From Alkalilimnicola ehrlichii MLHE-1 (GTDB lineage Bacteria; Pseudomonadota; Gammaproteobacteria; Nitrococcales; Halorhodospiraceae): 32,000 nucleotides of DNA. Within the stretch, counting starts at the first letter, position 1; every line of letters begins with the position of its first letter. The notes beneath the pieces are model-generated. The model did not search any database and was not told the origin of the DNA. It saw only the letters and a program-made list of their open reading frames with translations. The DNA is taken from the NCBI RefSeq assembly GCF_000014785.1, contig NC_008340.1, positions 3,210,001-3,242,000 on the forward strand, written 5' to 3'. This document shows, in pieces, positions 510-24,703 of the stretch. The position numbers and the translations under genes were made by a program.

Positions 510-1766
510 TCAGCCGCCAAAGGCCAGCATCAGCAGATAGAAGAAGAAGACCGCCAGGATGCCGCCCGCCGGCAGGGTCACCAGCCAGGACATGAACACA
601 CCACCCACCACGCGCAGGTTCAGCGCCGCAATACCGCGGGCGAGGCCGATACCGAGCACCGCGCCCACCAGGGTCTGGGTGGTGGAGATGGGCAGGCCGA
701 AACCGGAGGCGAAGACCACCGTGCCGGCGGTGGCCAGACCGCAGGCGAAGCCCCGGCTGGGGGTGAGCTGGGTGATATTGCTGCCCACCGTGGCGATCAC
801 GTGGTGGCCCAGCATAAACAGGCCGGCGACGATGCCACCACCGCCCAGCAGCAGGATCCACAGGGGCAGCTCGGCCTGGGCCGTTACGTCGCCATCACTG
901 GTCACCACACTGACCACCGCCGCCACCGGCCCGATGGCGTTGGCGACATCGTTGGAGCCGTGGGCGAAGGCCATGGCACAGGCCACCACCACCATCAGCA
1001 CACCGAAGACCCGCTCCACCGAGGCGAAGTGGAAATCCCGATCGGCGCTGGGGTCGACCCCGATGCGCGCCACCAAGCCCTTGCCCACCAGCCACAGTGC
1101 CACGGCGAAGAACAGTGAGTAGCCATAGCTCTGCGCCTCGCTGATCTCCAGCCCCAGATGACCCAGGCCCTTGAGCAGGGTGACCGAGGCGATGACAAAG
1201 CCCGTCAGGCCGATGTAGACCGGCACCCAGACGCGGGCCGCGCGGAGCGGATCGGGGGTGTCAAAGACCAGGTACTGGACACTGCGGAAGAGCAGGAAAC
1301 TGGCGATACCCGCCAGCACCGGCGACACCACCCAACTCGCCACCACGGTGCCCACCACCCCCCACTGCACGGCGCTCCAGCCGACAGCGGCGATGGCGAA
1401 ACCGACCAGCGCGCCGATGATCGAGTGGGTGGTGGAGACCGGCCAGCCCTTCTTCGAGGCCACCAGCAGCCAGGTACCGGCGGCCGCCAGGGCCGCCAGC
1501 ATGCCGAAGACCAGCACCTCCGGCGAGTCCTCCATCAGGCCGGCGTCGACAATGCCGCTGCGCACCGTGGCGGTGACTTCACCCCCGGCCAGGACGGCCC
1601 CCGCGAACTCGAAGATCGCCGCCACCACCACCGCCTGGCGGATAGTGAGCACCTTCGAGCCCACGGAGGGCGCCATGGCGTTGGCCACATCGTTCGCCCC
1701 GATGCCCCAGGCCATGAACAGCCCGAAGGCGGCGGCCAACACCAGGTATACGACACCGTATTCCAT
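510..1766 (-). CDS. pit: Inorganic phosphate transporter, PiT family
   Basis: 418-aa polytopic membrane protein. It carries the duplicated PiT signature GANDVANAM (N-terminal) and [11 protein letters not shown] (C-terminal half). It lies immediately downstream of its usual DUF47 partner. Confidence 0.9.
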
Positions 1767-5977: not shown

Positions 5978-6025
5978 CGGCCGGACGATGGGTGCCGGGG
6001 CGGCCCACGGGACTTGGAGGAAGGC

Positions 6026-6541
6026 ATGGCATCATCCCCACCCACGGTATTCTTCGCCCACGGCAAGGAATCCGGCCCCTGGGGCCGCAAGATCACCGCC
6101 CTGGCGGAGGTGGCCCGCGCCGCCGGCTTCCAGGTGGAAAGCCCCGACTACAGCCACACCCATGACCCCGATGAGCGGGTGCGCCAGCTACTGGCACTGG
6201 CACCGCAGGCGCGGTCCCGGCCGCTGGTGCTGGTCGGCTCCAGCATGGGCGGTTATGTCTCGGCCGTGGCCGCCGCCACCATCCCCGTGGACGGGCTGTT
6301 CCTGCTGGCCCCCGCCCTCTACCTGCCGGGCTACCCGGCGCAGCCCCACTGCCAGGCCCGGCAGATGACCGTGGTCCACGGCTGGAATGACGACATCGTG
6401 CCGGTGGACAACGGCATTCGGCTGGCACGGGAACACCGGGCCCGGCTGCATGTGCTGAATGCCGGGCACGATCTCAACGAGACCATCCCCTGGCTCTGCG
6501 CCTGTTTCGACCGCTTTCTCGGTGAGGTCCAGGCCCGATAA
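6026..6541 (+). CDS. Small alpha/beta-fold hydrolase (esterase-like)
   Basis: The ATG at 6026 is preceded by GGAGGAAGG; the track start at 6014 is TTG. 171 aa with the nucleophile elbow GSSMGG, then WNDDIVP (Asp) and NAGHDL (His), a spacing consistent with a Ser-Asp-His triad. Confidence 0.65.
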   Translation: MASSPPTVFFAHGKESGPWGRKITALAEVARAAGFQVESPDYSHTHDPDERVRQLLALAPQARSRPLVLVGSSMGGYVSAVAAATIPVDGLFLLAPALYLPGYPAQPHCQARQMTVVHGWNDDIVPVDNGIRLAREHRARLHVLNAGHDLNETIPWLCACFDRFLGEVQAR

Positions 6542-9577: not shown

Positions 9578-10999
9578 ATGTCCAGCAAAAGCTATTCAGC
9601 AGGCGTCAAAGATTATCGCGATACCTATTGGGAGCCCGACTACCAGGTCAAGGACAGTGACTTCCTGGCCTGTTTCAAGGTCGTGCCGCAGGCCGGCGTG
9701 CCCCGTGAGGAGGCCGCCGCCGCCGTGGCCGCCGAGTCCTCCACCGGCACCTGGACCACCGTGTGGACGGACCTGCTGACGGACCTGGATTATTACAAGG
9801 GCCGTGCCTACAAGATCGAGGACGTGCCCGGCGACGACGAAGCCTTCTACGCCTTTATTGCCTACCCCATCGACCTGTTCGAAGAGAGCTCGGTGGTCAA
9901 TGTCTTCACCTCCCTGGTGGGCAACGTCTTCGGCTTCAAGGCCGTGCGCAGCCTGCGCCTGGAGGACGTGCGCATCCCGCTGGCCTATGTGATGACCTGC
10001 AACGGCCCGCCCCACGGCATCCAGGTGGAGCGGGACAAGATGGACAAGTACGGCCGCGGCCTGCTCGGCTGCACCATCAAGCCCAAGCTCGGTCTGTCCG
10101 CCAAGAACTATGGCCGTGCGGTCTACGAGTGCCTGCGCGGTGGCCTGGACTTCACCAAGGACGACGAAAACGTCAACTCCCAGCCCTTCATGCGCTGGCG
10201 CGACCGCTTCCTGTTCGTCCAGGAGGCCACCGAGAAGGCGCAGCAGGAGACCGGCGAGCGCAAGGGCCACTACCTGAACGTCACCGCCCCCTCGCCTGAG
10301 GAGATGTACGAGCGCGCGGAGTTCGCCAAGGAGATCGGTGCCCCGATCATCATGCACGACTTCCTCACCGGCGGCTTCTGCGCCAACACCGGCCTCGCCC
10401 GCTGGTGCCGCAAGAACGGCATGCTGCTGCACATCCACCGCGCCATGCACGCGGTGATGGACCGCAACCCGCGCCACGGCATCCACTTCCGGGTCCTGGC
10501 CAAGGCCCTGCGCCTGAGCGGCGGCGACCACCTGCACACCGGCACCGTGGTGGGCAAGCTGGAGGGCGACCGCGCCGCCACCGAGGGCTGGATCGACCTG
10601 CTGCGTGAACGCTTTATCCCCGAGGACCGGGCCCGCGGCATCTTCTTCGATCAGGACTGGGGCGCCATGCCCGGCGTCTTCGCGGTGGCCTCCGGTGGTA
10701 TCCACGTCTGGCACATGCCGGCGCTGGTCTCCATCTTCGGCGACGATGCCGTCTTCCAGTTCGGCGGCGGCACCCTGGGCCACCCTTGGGGCAACGCGGC
10801 CGGCGCCGCGGCCAACCGGGTGGCGCTCGAGGCCTGCGTCAAGGCGCGCAACGAGGGCCGCAACTTGGAGCGGGAAGGCAAGGAGATCCTGCAGGCCGCT
10901 GCCCAGCACAGCCCCGAGCTGAAGATCGCCATGGAGACCTGGAAGGAGATCAAGTTCGAATTCGAGACGGTGGACAAGCTGGACACGACGCACCGCTAA
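9578..10999 (+). CDS. cbbL: RuBisCO large subunit, form IA
   Basis: The start is taken at the ATG at 9578 ([22 protein letters not shown]); the track start at 9479 is TTG with a non-conserved extension. 473 aa. It contains [28 protein letters not shown] and the carbamylation-site region. The N-terminus matches form IA (green-type) enzymes. Confidence 0.97.
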
Positions 11000-11577: not shown

Positions 11578-12384
11578 ATGACCGATACCGATCAATACGC
11601 CGTCAAGCAAGAACCCTATTACCGCCCGGTGGGCGACGAGACCGAGTTGTTCGAGGCGGCGCACGCCGCGCGGATGCCGGTCATGCTCAAGGGCCCCACC
11701 GGTTGCGGTAAGTCACGGTTCGTCTCCTGGATGGCCTGGCGGCTGCAGCGGCCGCTGGTCACCGTGGCCTGCAACGAGGACATGACCGCCGCCGATCTGG
11801 TGGGCCGTTACCTGCTGGATGCCGACGGCACCCGCTGGCAGGACGGGCCGCTGACCCTGGCCGCCCGCATTGGCGCCATCTGCTACCTGGACGAGGTGGT
11901 GGAGGCCCGTCAGGACACCACGGTGGTGATCCACCCGCTCACCGACCATCGGCGGGTGCTGCCCCTGGAGAAGAAGGGCGAGCTGGTGGAGGCCCATCCG
12001 GACTTCCATCTCGTCATCTCCTACAACCCGGGCTATCAGAACCTGATGAAGGACCTGAAGCCCTCCACCAAACAACGCTTCGGTGCCCTGCACTTCGATT
12101 TCCCGGAGGCGGAGACCGAGGCGGAGATCCTGGTGCACGAAGCGGGGGTGGACCGGACCACCGCCGAGCGCCTGGTGCAGGTGGGCCAGCGCGGACGCAA
12201 CCTCAAGGGCCACGGCCTGGACGAGGGCATCTCCACCCGGCTGCTGGTCTACGCCGGCCAACTCATCGCCCGCGGCATCGCCCCCGGGGCTGCCTGCCGC
12301 ATGGCGCTGGTGCACCCGATCACCGACGATCCCGACCTGCGGGATACCCTGGAAGCGGCGGTGGACACGCACTTTCCGGACTGA
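11578..12384 (+). CDS. cbbQ: CbbQ, MoxR-class AAA+ ATPase subunit of the RuBisCO activase
   Basis: 268 aa with Walker A GPTGCGKS and Walker [11 protein letters not shown]. It lies directly downstream of cbbLS, as in cbbQ-associated form IA operons. Confidence 0.93.
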
Positions 12385-12506
12385 GGAGCAGGGATGCCGG
12401 CACTGGAAGAGACATCGGCCCCTGTTGGGGCGGTGCCGGCGAATCCCACGGGTGCTGAAAGGTGCAGGTCTATGTCGGCTGGTCCTTCGGTAACCCTTGT
12501 ACAGGC

Positions 12507-12624
12507 GCCCTTTGGGGCGGGAGGTTGCGGTCATGGGTACGCTGCAAGTACGTCCCTGTAAGCTCGTAGCCGGCCATCCATGGCCGGCTACGCCCCATGA
12601 CCGCAACCTCCCGCCCCAAAGGGC
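12507..12624. repeat. 118-bp nested palindromic element (31-bp perfect terminal inverted repeats plus an inner 13-bp perfect hairpin)
   Basis: The left arm GCCCTTTGGGGCGGGAGGTTGCGGTCATGGG (12507-12537) is the exact reverse complement of 12594-12624. The inner hairpin is CGTAGCCGGCCAT-CC-ATGGCCGGCTACG at 12565-12592. It lies in the cbbQ-cbbO spacer. No flanking direct repeat was seen. Confidence 0.85.
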
Positions 12625-12867
12625 TAGCCATGCCCCGACCCCGATCACGACTCCGGCGCAATCGGGTGTCCAATGGGTCATTGTTAACTGCCCGGACAAT
12701 CCGCGGATTAATCCGCAAAGCGGGTTCAACGGTCTGCTCTCCCTGCGCGTTGAGGTGCAGGCTAGGGCACCGGAGATCGCTACCACCCAGTTACGGATTA
12801 GGGCCGGCGCCGTGGAATGGCACGCGGTCTCTGCCGGGCCCAACCCACCCAGCCCCAGGAGGCCGTC

Positions 12868-15198
12868 ATGAACGCCGAAATCCAAGCCTTGGCGGATGAA
12901 CTGCGCGGCACCCACCGCGAGGTGGCCGAGGTGCTCGACGCCTGCCTCGCCGAAGCAACCCGGGTGATGTCCGCCGACACCCAGGCCCGTTATCTGGAGG
13001 CCGCCCTGGCCCTGAACCGCCTGGGCCGCGGCCACGAGATCGTCATCACTTGGCTCGAGGCCATGCCCCCGGTGGCGCGCGAGGCCGGCGAGGCCATCGT
13101 CCCCGACACCGCCAGCGCCGCGCTCAAACTGGCCTCCATGGTCAGCGGCGAAGTCGTCGGCCTACTCTTCGACAGCCTGCCCACCGCCGCCCGACGGCTG
13201 GGCGACGACGACCTGCTGCGCCAATACCTGGCCCTGATCCACCAACTCTCCGGCCGCGCCCCGCGCGCCCTGCGCCCGCTGTTCACCCACCTCGACCAGC
13301 TGCTGGCCGTGCTCACCCTCAGCGGTCTTCGCCGCTGGGCACTCTGGGGCGTGCAGGCCTACGCCCGGGACTACGACCGCCTGGCCGCCTACTTCGCGCT
13401 GGAATCGGCCGACAGTCAGCAGGTCCTGCAACAGGAGCGCCGCGGCGTGCTCTTCGTGGACGTCCAGCGCCGGCTGGGCTTCTATTTGCGCGCCCTTTGG
13501 GGCCGCGACTTCTTCCTGCGCCCCAACGCCGCCGAACCGGGCAGCCCCGAGGCCCGCCCCTTCATCGAGGCTGGCACCCTGCACCTGCCCGACGCCATGG
13601 ACGATGTGGGCAGTGTCCGCGGCCTGGAGGTCTACCGCGCCCAGTGCGCCCACGCCGCCGCCCACATCGGCTTCGGCGAGGGCGCGCCGATGCAGGCCGA
13701 GGCGCTGAGCCCCGCCCAGCGTTACCTGATGGCCCTGATCGAAGATGCCCGGGTAGAGGCCCTAAGCGTGGCCACCTTTCCCGGCCTCTTCCCCCTCTGG
13801 CGCCGGCTGCTCAGCGAGGCCCCCCGCGCCGAGGACCCCACCCTGGCGCTGCTCCAGCGGCTCGCCCTCGCGCTGCTCGACCCCCAGTGGCAGGACGACC
13901 ACCCGGTTGTAGCGCAACTGGCCGGCCGCTTCCACCAGCGCATCCAGGCCGGCGACCACGGCTGGGAGCTGTCCGCGGAGCTCGGCCTCGACCTCATTGG
14001 CCACCTTCAGGACGCCGGCCCGCTGCCGCCCCTGAGCCGCCTGGAAACCCTGCCGCTGGCCTACCGCGACGACAACCGCTACCTCTGGGCCGAGCCGGAG
14101 GAGGCCGAACTGGCGCGGCAGGCGCCCGCCAAGGAGGCCCAGGTACGGCGCCGGCCTAGCGTCATCGAGATGGTCAATGAACTGGACTGCGAGCTGGCCG
14201 GGGACGATGCCCAGGAGATCTGGATCCTCGACACCGAGTTCTACCGCGACGGCGATCCGGAGGGGGTCAGTATCAATGAGCTGGAGGGCAAGCCCGCCAC
14301 CAGTCCCCCCTTCCATTACCAGGAGTGGGACTACAAGGCGCAACTGCACCGGCCCGACTGGGTCACGCTTATGGAACGCCGCCAGCCGGCCGGTGACCCG
14401 GACGACCTCAAGGCAATCATGGACGAATACCGCCCCGTGGCCCGACGGCTGCAGCGGGTGATCGACAGCCTGATCCCCCAGGGGCTGGTGCGCGAGCGCC
14501 GGCAGGAGGATGGCGACGAGATCGACCTGGACGCCGCCATCCGCGCCCGCATCGACCAGAAAACCGGCCACACGCCCGACCACCGGGTGAGCATCCGCTA
14601 CCACCGCCAGGAGCGGGACCTGGCGGTCCTGCTGCTGCTCGACCTGTCGGAATCGGCCAATGACACCCTGCCCGGCTCCGACCGCCCGCTCATCCAGCTC
14701 ACCCGCGAGGCCACCACGCTGCTGGCCTGGGCGGCCGACAGCATCGGCGACCCCTTCGCCGTGCACGGATTCGCCTCGGAGACCCGGCACGATGTCCACT
14801 ACCACCGCTTCAAGGACTTCGACCAGCCCTGGGACGATGCCGCCCAAGCTCGGGTGGCGGGTCTGGAGGCGGGGCTCTCCACCCGCATGGGTGCGGCATT
14901 ACGTCACGCCGGGCACTATATGACCCGCCGCCCGGAGCGCCACCGACTGATCCTGCTGCTCTCTGACGGTGCCCCCTCCGACATCGACGCGCCGGACCCG
15001 CAGTACCTGCGCCAGGACACCCGCAAGGCGGTGGAGGCGCTCCAGGCCCGTGGCGTTCACGCCCACTGCCTGACCCTGGACCCGGGCGCGGATCAGTACG
15101 TCCAGCAGCTCTTCGGCCCCCGCGGCTATACCGTGCTGGACCACCCCCAGCGGCTGCCTGAGAAGCTGCCCACCCTGTTCGCCAGCCTCACCCGCTGA
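12868..15198 (+). CDS. cbbO: CbbO, von Willebrand factor A domain subunit of the RuBisCO activase
   Basis: The start is at the ATG at 12868 (MNAEIQALADELRG), preceded by AGGAGG. 776 aa. The C-terminal VWA domain has the MIDAS motif LLLLDLSESAN and a later LILLLSDGAPSD. The size and the position after cbbQ fit CbbO. Confidence 0.9.
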   Translation: MNAEIQALADELRGTHREVAEVLDACLAEATRVMSADTQARYLEAALALNRLGRGHEIVITWLEAMPPVAREAGEAIVPDTASAALKLASMVSGEVVGLLFDSLPTAARRLGDDDLLRQYLALIHQLSGRAPRALRPLFTHLDQLLAVLTLSGLRRWALWGVQAYARDYDRLAAYFALESADSQQVLQQERRGVLFVDVQRRLGFYLRALWGRDFFLRPNAAEPGSPEARPFIEAGTLHLPDAMDDVGSVRGLEVYRAQCAHAAAHIGFGEGAPMQAEALSPAQRYLMALIEDARVEALSVATFPGLFPLWRRLLSEAPRAEDPTLALLQRLALALLDPQWQDDHPVVAQLAGRFHQRIQAGDHGWELSAELGLDLIGHLQDAGPLPPLSRLETLPLAYRDDNRYLWAEPEEAELARQAPAKEAQVRRRPSVIEMVNELDCELAGDDAQEIWILDTEFYRDGDPEGVSINELEGKPATSPPFHYQEWDYKAQLHRPDWVTLMERRQPAGDPDDLKAIMDEYRPVARRLQRVIDSLIPQGLVRERRQEDGDEIDLDAAIRARIDQKTGHTPDHRVSIRYHRQERDLAVLLLLDLSESANDTLPGSDRPLIQLTREATTLLAWAADSIGDPFAVHGFASETRHDVHYHRFKDFDQPWDDAAQARVAGLEAGLSTRMGAALRHAGHYMTRRPERHRLILLLSDGAPSDIDAPDPQYLRQDTRKAVEALQARGVHAHCLTLDPGADQYVQQLFGPRGYTVLDHPQRLPEKLPTLFASLTR

Positions 15199-22960: not shown

Positions 22961-23035
22961 GAAAGGCGGCGGGGCTTTAAGGCTTGCGGTGGGGTTGCCG
23001 CTGGGATAGCCCCAGCGCAGTGCCCCACCGGAAGT

Positions 23036-24445: not shown

Positions 24446-24497
24446 GGTCCTTTCCGTCCTCTGGCTTGTTCGGTTATAACGCCTTCACAGGGCCCTG

Positions 24498-24693
24498 CCT
24501 TGCGGTTGTGGGGGGCGATCATCGGGCCGGCCTCCAGTTGCGCACCCCTTCGGGGTACCCTGCGCTACTCACAAAAAATCGGCGCGCGTGAACTCGCTTC
24601 GCTCAAACAGGCACGCGCTTCATCCGATTTTTTGCTGCGTTGCTCGGTGCGCAAAGTCGGCCGGCCCGGTGATCGCCCCCCACAACCGCAAGG
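24498..24693. repeat. 196-bp long imperfect palindrome (MITE/REP-like or structured RNA) between dut and algC
   Basis: The 35-bp arms 24498-24532 and 24659-24693 are complementary at 34/35 positions. Inner matching pairs are TTGCGCACC (24538-24546) with GGTGCGCAA (24646-24654), CAAAAAATCGG (24572-24582) with CCGATTTTTTG (24624-24634), and GCGCGTG (24584-24590) with CACGCGC (24612-24618). Confidence 0.85.
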
Positions 24694-24703
24694 CCGGATG
24701 AAG

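Follow-up and report, generated by a model that had tools for sequence, protein, structure and literature searches.

Yersinia palindromic sequences (YPAL), reportedly described by De Gregorio et al. in the Journal of Bacteriology in 2006, are the closest described relatives of the DNA element considered here. This element, E1, is a 118-nt palindrome at positions 12507-12624 of a 32,000-nt stretch of the Alkalilimnicola ehrlichii MLHE-1 genome (contig NC_008340.1, 3,210,001-3,242,000, forward strand; hereafter the window). It lies between cbbQ and cbbO, the genes for the two subunits of a Rubisco activase. YPAL, which Delihas has equated with RU-2 (PMC2759123), is a 167-168-bp miniature inverted-repeat transposable element (MITE) of Yersinia and Pectobacterium, and one copy is listed in Rfam as the small RNA (sRNA) Ysr224 (RF02770). 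Its inverted repeats are internal rather than terminal in a sequence of ~168 bp, and its target duplications are 3-26 bp long (PMC2229807). Targets are at or next to regions of dyad symmetry, and filled and empty sites are found between close strains (PMC2229807). YPAL is expressed with upstream genes and may affect the stability of their transcripts (PMC2229807). For Y. pestis, ~100 copies with compensatory changes are reported (Cozzuto et al., 2008; PMC2267715); a Yersinia copy number of 60 is given elsewhere (PMC2759123).

Other hairpin elements of bacteria are also relevant for comparison. GTAG families of repetitive extragenic palindromes (REPs) are frequent in the Gammaproteobacteria, with Stenotrophomonas and Thioalkalivibrio among their hosts (PMC3733652). 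MITEs of the ERIC and Correia type are reported, in passages of PMC2229807 and PMC3733652, to be co-transcribed with their neighbours and to alter stability or processing of messenger RNA (mRNA).

E1 is one member of a structured, covarying sequence family that is dispersed beside unrelated genes and is polymorphic for presence and absence. From these comparisons of sequence, we consider it probable that E1 belongs to a family of mobile elements that are miniature and non-autonomous and have the YPAL/RU-2 MITE of Yersinia as a relative. A first-pass annotation, made from the letters of the window alone, had described a 118-bp element with perfect 31-bp arms and a perfect inner 13-bp hairpin, and our repeat search reproduced it. 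The arms are 31 nt long, 100% complementary and separated by 56 nt, and the arm 31-mer has two sites only in the window, where 0 are expected by chance. E1 alone folds at -98.6 kcal/mol (z = -14). It starts 122 nt past the cbbQ stop codon, beside a small hairpin at 12396-12440, and is in sense orientation to cbbQ and the cbb operon. Its parts are given below; R1 is a covariance model made from an alignment of 30 copies with no Yersinia sequence included, and L numbers denote the loci and contigs compared.

12507-12537, + strand: left arm of E1, the 5' strand of helix P1; 31 of 31 nt complementary to 12594-12624, homologous (84% over 104 nt) to the arms of the copies on L033 and L050, in columns that covary across the family.

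12538-12593, + strand: conserved core of E1, made up of the junction ACGCUGCAA, hairpin 1 (hp1; 12549-12552 paired with 12557-12560, loop UCCC), a linker, and hairpin 2 (hp2; 12565-12577 paired with 12580-12592, 13 nt, 100% complementary, containing GTAG...CTAC, loop CC); the core pattern matches 49 metagenome contigs, hp1 and hp2 covary, and R1 scores 91.3 bits.

12594-12624, + strand: right arm of E1, the 3' strand of helix P1; complementary to the left arm and missing from a sister strain (locus L014).

12490-12506, + strand: possible outer left flank of E1, alignable to the Ysr224/YPAL model of Rfam at the 5' end of the latter (UUGACAaaGcGCC versus UUGUACAGGCGCC); a weak candidate that has no counterpart in the high-GC family members.

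A second copy, E2, was identified in this sister A. ehrlichii strain (CP184336, locus L014), in the spacer between fba and pgm. E2 is a palindrome of 120 nt (L014 20079-20198) with perfect 34-nt arms and a 52-nt interior, and has an R1 score of 104 bits. The colinear, full-length alignment of E1 and E2 scores 26 (9.2 +/- 1.5 in shuffles, with 0 of 500 as high), and that of the interiors alone 16 (6.8 +/- 1.4 in shuffles). Both interiors are asymmetric, with ~27 nt followed by a GTAG...CTAC hairpin that abuts the right arm. Hairpins of this kind are exclusive to E1 and E2 among the Alkalilimnicola and Alkalispirillum loci compared.

The 21 interior positions common to E1 and E2 provided a degenerate core pattern, ACGCNGNAANNNCNTCCCTGNNNGCTNGTAG. 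This matched 49 metagenome contigs, with a chance expectation estimated at < 1, and none of the viral contigs. The layout in every match is GGAC, ACGCCGYAA, hp1 with a TCCC loop, GCT, hp2 beginning CGTAG with an ATCCAT loop, and GTCC. The arms in the family are 26-34 nt long and differ between copies but are complementary within each copy. The parts of the 52-56-nt core are the junction ACGCYGYAA, a hairpin of 4 bp whose loop is UCCC, and a GTAG-containing hairpin of 10-13 bp whose loop is AUCC(A/C)U. The nearest relative of E1 is on L050, a Stenotrophomonas contig (by a PBP1B that is 96% identical), and has 84% identity over 104 nt, arms included. Because the outer 12 nt of E2 are found in the "empty" allele, insertion was at first suspected of having created the arms as inverted duplicates of the target flank. 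This idea was dropped because the arms of E1 and E2 align colinearly and those of E1 are 84% identical to the Stenotrophomonas copy.

Base pairs were counted in a MAFFT alignment of 30 distinct copies to which no structure had been fitted. The covariation analysis, which the first-pass annotation had proposed, backs a three-helix model. Standard pairs occupy 93.3% of cells (71% when shuffled and 36-47% in slid controls), and the covariation score is 0.573 (0.179 when shuffled and 0.08-0.13 in slid controls). Changes on both sides were found in 29 of the 37 pairs, including all 22 arm pairs and 7 of the 15 core pairs. The core (52 nt) forms a three-way junction common to all copies. Two core pairs, at columns 37-42 (A-U/G-U) and columns 52-75 (U-G/U-A), are G-U in 14 and 17 of the 30 copies, respectively. 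The G-U pairs form only on the strand carrying the core pattern (+ at E1), and the folded form is therefore a single strand of that polarity, either RNA or single-stranded DNA. GGA loop motifs on the opposite strand, resembling CsrA/RsmA sites, were set aside, as the wobble pairs favour the other strand.

Distinct copies of the family (62 in total) comprise the metagenome matches of at least 60 bits, the copies of the window and L014, and two plasmid copies, with duplicates removed. In the metagenome loci R1 has 78 matches at E <= 0.001, 61 of which score at least 60 bits. The contigs that carry these copies (L024-L072) are mostly 58-71% GC. The 130 open reading frames (ORFs) adjoining 45 copies match 166 different Pfam families, without enrichment. 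Where a gene ends no more than 150 nt upstream, 25 of 35 copies are co-oriented with it (p = 0.017, a bias that relies on crude gene calls from GC content at third codon positions, GC3). Many metagenome copies are in convergent pairs (+ then -) with a distance of 250-320 nt, for example L046 9711-9806(+) with 9975-10070(-) and L050 986-1081(+) with 1304-1399(-). Such an arrangement fits two convergent genes that are each followed by a copy.

The conservation of the core could also be explained if the family were a functional RNA module, either a trans-acting sRNA like Ysr224 or a protein-binding element of 3' untranslated regions. Selection would then act on the core for a cellular function, and the mobile appearance would be secondary. 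In keeping with this, the 52-nt core retains ~80% conservation across Yersinia, Stenotrophomonas and Alkalilimnicola, in contrast to the freely changing arms, the UCCC and AUCCAU loops are invariant or nearly so, and the wobble pairs work on one strand only. Copies also tend to be downstream of co-oriented genes, and the Yersinia copy is listed in Rfam as an sRNA. However, a conserved core is equally expected of a transposase recognition site, the copy number in Yersinia is high (~100, PMC2267715, or 60, PMC2759123), no Rfam family reaches threshold, and presence is polymorphic between very close strains. We regard the RNA module as an unlikely explanation.

The relationship of the mobile family to YPAL was recognized via Rfam, a search that had also been proposed in the first pass. 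At gathering thresholds, no family was identified in the whole window. The top matches in E-value mode were generic precursor models for microRNAs, which match any long perfect hairpin on both strands and are thus uninformative. The model RF02770 (Yersinia sRNA 224, Ysr224) matches window positions 12490-12596 on the + strand with 34.9 bits (E ~1e-6), and also matches 8 of the 12 metagenome loci scanned (21-35 bits). Sequences 98% identical to the Ysr224 consensus are present on Yersinia plasmids, and sequences 75-78% identical on plasmids of E. coli, Klebsiella, Citrobacter, Shigella and Pantoea. The copy on a Yersinia similis IncFII plasmid (L074 4000-4167) is identical at 166 of 168 positions to the Y. 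pestis CO92 RU-2/YPAL printed in Table 1b of PMC2759123. In the opposite direction, R1 matches this copy over the full length of the model (54.5 bits, E 7e-9), and matches the copy on an IncN plasmid with 43.4 bits. The core of E1 (window 12539-12593) aligns with RU-2 positions 52-105 with a score of 29 (10.6 +/- 1.75 in shuffles, and 0 of 500 as high).

E1 is thus like YPAL in that its central 54 nt are homologous, with covariance-model matches in both directions, and in having the same three-helix core inside a long hairpin, with no coding capacity of its own. As in YPAL, the copies are intergenic, typically downstream of a co-oriented gene, and filled and empty or truncated sites are found between close strains. 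The plasmid copies of YPAL are bracketed by direct duplicates. In L074 (3972-4192) these are of a 20-nt terminator-like hairpin, AACCGCCATAAAGGCGGTTT, and in L073, an E. coli IncN plasmid (3982-4186), the 19-nt duplicates are CAGGGGCAT..GCCCCTGA. Read from these flanks, the plasmid copies show an element that inserts at terminators and travels on conjugative plasmids.

Several observations weigh against the assignment of E1 to a mobile family related to YPAL, or set E1 apart from YPAL. The similarity of the two is confined to the 54-nt core, with none detectable outside it, and the recognisable homology at E1 covers 12515-12616, or at most 12490-12624. The Ysr224 score at E1 is below the gathering threshold of 70 bits. 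Unlike YPAL (168 nt; 167-168 bp in published copies), E1 and its high-GC relatives are 104-130 nt long, with GC-rich, nearly perfect arms that bear no sequence relationship to those of YPAL. The ends of YPAL (AGGTTATTGACAA ... TTGTCAGCAGTCT) and the duplicated terminator-like hairpins of 19-20 nt are not recognisable at E1. The host, a chemolithoautotroph of the Ectothiorhodospiraceae, is outside the published range of Yersinia and Erwinia. We did not identify a target-site duplication or an empty site for E1 among the loci compared, and R1 finds one copy in the 32 kb of the source genome that was scanned. An exact 20-mer from the arm had no match in related genomes among the GTDB representatives. 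There were eight single matches in unrelated taxa, but these were judged to be chance (the one inspected, in Brevundimonas, L005, is at an apparent gene start reading MTATSR). Thus, E1 is without a recent identical sibling among these representatives. No transposase (Y1_Tnp or other) was identified among the 130 ORFs adjoining 45 copies, and the ~365 nt of the spacer outside E1 have no significant similarity to E1, E2, the flanks of E2 or the flanks of other copies. The crude gene calls behind the orientation bias also count here, as does the fact that any effect of E1 on mRNA is argued purely from analogy.

Contigs of the same strain in Logan (k = 31) end at the 31-nt arms: L001 ends at window position 12536 and L012 starts at 12595. 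We rejected these breaks as evidence for multiple copies, as they are indistinguishable from the graph break that k = 31 produces at an inverted 31-mer. Further contig ends are those of L002 (which ends at window ~12514) and L013 (which starts at 12673). In a second sample, SRR9436229, the breaks are elsewhere and the left arm has one additional C at its start, a hint of another spacer allele.

The GTAG hairpin raises the question of whether E1 is a REPIN, i.e., a doublet of REPs mobilised by a RAYT (REP-associated tyrosine transposase of the Y1/HUH type), with the inner hairpin as the REP. The elements share with REP/BIME elements and REPINs, the GTAG-tagged REP families included (Di Nocera et al., 2013; PMC3733652), a GTAG...CTAC hairpin, a position downstream of genes, compensatory changes by which a hairpin is kept, and G-T/G-U pairs that point to a folded single strand. 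The hp2 of E1 and E2 reads GTAG-stem-loop-stem-CTAC and, in the Alkalilimnicola and Alkalispirillum loci compared, occurs only inside these elements. The strand-specific pairs fit a single-stranded DNA intermediate as well as RNA, and REP families of this type are common in the Gammaproteobacteria. However, the layout is the reverse of that of a REP (20-40 nt) or a REPIN (two inverted REPs with a variable spacer), because in the E1 family a single asymmetric centre is conserved and the arms vary. There is one central GTAG hairpin rather than two inverted REPs, and its GTAG is base-paired rather than an unpaired tag. The lack of Y1_Tnp or other transposase genes among the 130 neighbouring ORFs, and the variable target duplications published for YPAL, which are not made by Y1 transposases, also argue against a REPIN. 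We therefore consider this origin quite improbable. Ordinary GTAG REPs (GGTAGGTGTCGACCTTGGTC...) were observed beside several of the metagenome copies.

In length (100-170 bp) and in having long hairpins, the E1 family is like the ERIC/IRU (RU-1) and Correia/NEMIS MITEs. Nevertheless, no sequence similarity of E1 to ERIC/IRU or to Correia/NEMIS was detected. Those elements make TA target duplications and carry conserved inverted repeats at their termini; in the E1 family the ends vary and it is the centre that is conserved.

Comparison of related loci indicates that the spacer that contains E1 has changed over short evolutionary distances. The sister strain CP184336 has a DNA identity of ~97-98%. 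Its flanking DNA is 94-99% identical to that of the window strain (96-99% over long gene-containing blocks), and its CbbO is 99% identical. Its cbbQ-cbbO spacer is only 219 bp long, compared with 483 nt in the window, and the hairpin is destroyed. In the CP184336 allele, the left portion of the spacer is retained, as are the left arm, with a single mismatch, and the initial 14 nt of the interior. These are followed by ~17 unmatched bases and then the final ~35 nt before cbbO; window positions 12552-12832 are missing. In L014, R1 detects E2 only, and not the truncated E1.

The reverse situation is found at the E2 site, which corresponds to window ~23005-23015. Here CP184336 has E2 and ~110 nt of extra sequence and the window strain has 9 nt. 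Thus, E1 is whole in the window strain and truncated in CP184336, and E2 is present in CP184336 and missing from the window strain. In the "empty" allele, the outer 12 nt of the left arm of E2 occur within a small hairpin. This points to one of two events, an insertion at a hairpin or a deletion from which a stub was left over.

The cbbQ-cbbO spacer is 39 bp long in five Alkalispirillum-like loci (CbbO 86% identical), in which R1 identified no copy, and 20 bp long in Thiorhodospira sibirica. The first-pass statement that the two genes are usually adjacent holds for these loci. It does not hold for a more distant metagenomic lineage (L076-L078; CbbO 60% identical), where a gene for a 195-aa methyltransferase is found between cbbQ and cbbO, and separation of the pair is therefore tolerated. 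In this lineage there is also a YceI gene between cbbS and cbbQ. Because spacers are short or altered in the relatives and in the sister strain, we conclude that the long spacer and its hairpin are recent, lineage-specific and unstable.

We infer from the alignments that the insertion of E1 is older than the split of the two A. ehrlichii strains, and that the loss of 281 nt in CP184336 came later. Retention of the left arm and 14 nt of the core indicates that the short allele derives from a complete element. In the history that we propose, E1 and other DNA would have entered the cbbQ-cbbO spacer in the A. ehrlichii lineage after the split from the Alkalispirillum-like relatives with their 39-bp spacer. 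A later rearrangement in the sister strain would then have removed everything from core position 15 on, plus ~208 nt downstream.

These comparisons bear directly on the function that was first proposed for the hairpin, that of a cis-regulatory RNA (an attenuator or processing site) specific to this locus. On this view, the structure would have arisen to keep cbbO below cbbQ, in line with the CbbQ6:CbbO1 stoichiometry that has been reported. In favour of it, the hairpin has high stability (-98.6 kcal/mol) and is placed exactly between the two cistrons in sense orientation, and its perfect arms of 31 bp slightly surpass the arms of most other copies in the family (1-3 mismatches). However, there is no U-tract terminator, the relatives have spacers of 20-39 bp, and the hairpin is destroyed in CP184336, a strain with near-identical CbbO. 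Moreover, the same family adjoins unrelated housekeeping genes in many genomes, and fba-pgm in the sister strain. Copies in many unrelated intergenic regions were what the first-pass annotation had itself named as grounds for giving up the idea, and at the level of the family they exist. The comparative data have largely refuted the locus-specific regulator, which we now consider very improbable, and selection for a structure peculiar to this locus is likewise not supported. The other possibility raised at that time, recent insertion of a mobile palindromic element, is supported by membership in a dispersed YPAL-related family, by an element that is polymorphic between two A. ehrlichii strains and has no copy in the nearest relatives.

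Throughout the family, stems differ between copies but pairing is preserved within each copy, and in this respect E1 and E2 are among the better-paired copies. The perfect arms thus appear to reflect upkeep of the stem within the mobile family, by recent copying and/or selection for the hairpin, rather than selection on the cbb operon.

Genes of the cbb region were identified using Pfam. Their order in the window is cbbR(-), cbbL, cbbS, cbbQ, the spacer, cbbO, a gap, tkt, pgk, pyk and fba. The features around E1 are as follows.

11578-12384, + strand: cbbQ, the AAA+ subunit of the Rubisco activase, upstream of the spacer; Pfam AAA_5 and CbbQ_C (E ~1e-33 each), protein identical to A. ehrlichii MLHE-1 CbbQ.

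12385-12867, + strand: non-coding intercistronic spacer, lineage-specific; 483 nt with no coding signature, of a length that differs among relatives.

12396-12440, + strand: small hairpin with an 8-bp stem, GCCGGCAC/GTGCCGGC, around GGCCCC-TGTT-GGGGC; identified by repeat search and folding, also in L014.

12625-12832, + strand: ~208 nt of non-coding DNA with small dyads, e.g., AATCCGCGGATT at ~12701; by the sister-strain alignment and BLAST extents, missing there together with 12552-12624.

12857-12862, + strand: Shine-Dalgarno sequence AGGAGG of cbbO, present in both A. ehrlichii strains.

12868-15198, + strand: cbbO, the VWA-domain activase subunit; Pfam VWA_CoxE and VWA.

GC3 is 0.55-0.70 for the spacer ORFs and 0.88-0.90 for cbbQ and cbbO, and no spacer ORF has a Pfam match at E <= 1, which confirms the earlier description of 12385-12867 as a 483-bp non-coding spacer between cbbQ and cbbO. 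The whole spacer has a folding energy of -262.5 kcal/mol (z = -6.6 versus shuffles). The 8-bp pair GCCGGCAC/GTGCCGGC is at 12396-12403 and 12433-12440, in the left part of the spacer that is common to both A. ehrlichii strains. Its existence was correctly noted in the first pass, with the end placed one position short (~12439). No match of the whole spacer to plasmids or phages was identified using blastn, for which the core is too diverged. The 12625-12832 segment has no similarity to E1, E2 or their flanks and no plasmid or phage match. We identified 4913 CbbO homologues at E <= 1e-50, the nearest of which are from A. ehrlichii. The CbbO of the window strain is also encoded in CP183314.1.

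Searches for U-tract terminators in 12385-12867 and for sigma-70-like promoters in the spacer found neither. The right arm is followed by UAGCCAUGCC, and not by the U-tract that, with a GC-rich hairpin, makes an intrinsic terminator or attenuator. The cbbO gene starts with ATG at 12868, and AGGAGG ends 5 nt before it. Given the lack of a U-tract terminator and of a promoter, and the presence of a ribosome-binding site of its own, cbbO is probably transcribed from the cbb promoter through E1. E1 would then be co-transcribed with cbbLSQ in its usual sense orientation. Judged by analogy, the most likely role of its hairpin, a perfect 31-bp duplex without a U-tract, would be as a barrier to 3'-to-5' exonucleases and/or as a site for RNase III. 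With either, the cbbLSQ segment of the mRNA would gain stability over that of cbbO. In the malE-malF region of E. coli, mRNA upstream of an intercistronic REP is stabilised by it, an effect of the type put forward in the first pass. It is plausible, again by analogy with what has been reported for YPAL, ERIC and REP, that such an effect, in the direction first proposed, would be a by-product of a selfish insertion and not an adaptation.

For studies of Rubisco activase, these findings imply that the spacer consists of junk or mobile DNA that is recent and varies between strains, and is not a conserved device for setting stoichiometry. The two A. ehrlichii strains nevertheless provide a natural experiment, as their cbbLSQO genes are near-identical (CbbO 99%) and they differ in a hairpin of -99 kcal/mol. 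The results also extend the range of the YPAL family well beyond Yersinia, to a new host clade. What the family conserves is a structured centre, enclosed by arms that covary, and this narrows what a mobilising enzyme or an RNA-binding partner must recognise.

A broader interpretation, which is possible but doubtful, is that YPAL is the enterobacterial branch of a wider gammaproteobacterial superfamily. Such a superfamily would be defined by the deeply conserved, strand-specific three-way junction of 52 nt, in which the UCCC and AUCCAU loops are invariant, rather than by terminal repeats, with the core serving as a functional RNA module or a transposase recognition site. Its range may include Stenotrophomonas, Alkalilimnicola, IncN and IncF plasmids and further lineages, from 37 to 71% GC. 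The core could be an RNA module (e.g., one that binds a protein or protects 3' ends) that is tolerated or exploited by the hosts. Alternatively, it could be the site that a transposase recognises in a folded single strand. If the superfamily exists, the hairpin-present and hairpin-deleted alleles of A. ehrlichii would be a natural test of whether such an insertion retunes CbbQ:CbbO.

A second large palindrome fills the intergenic region between dut and pgm (window 24494-24697). Its 39-nt arms are 95% complementary with 126 nt between them, and its folding energy is -141.9 kcal/mol (z = -11.4). It is not similar to E1 or E2, no plasmid match was identified, and it is probably a member of another repeat family. 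It is also present in L014 (21812-21988), with small differences. In addition, a gene for a 171-aa abhydrolase-like protein (UPF0227/Abhydrolase_6) at window ~5978-6541 is largely deleted in CP184336 (L014 3853-3964).

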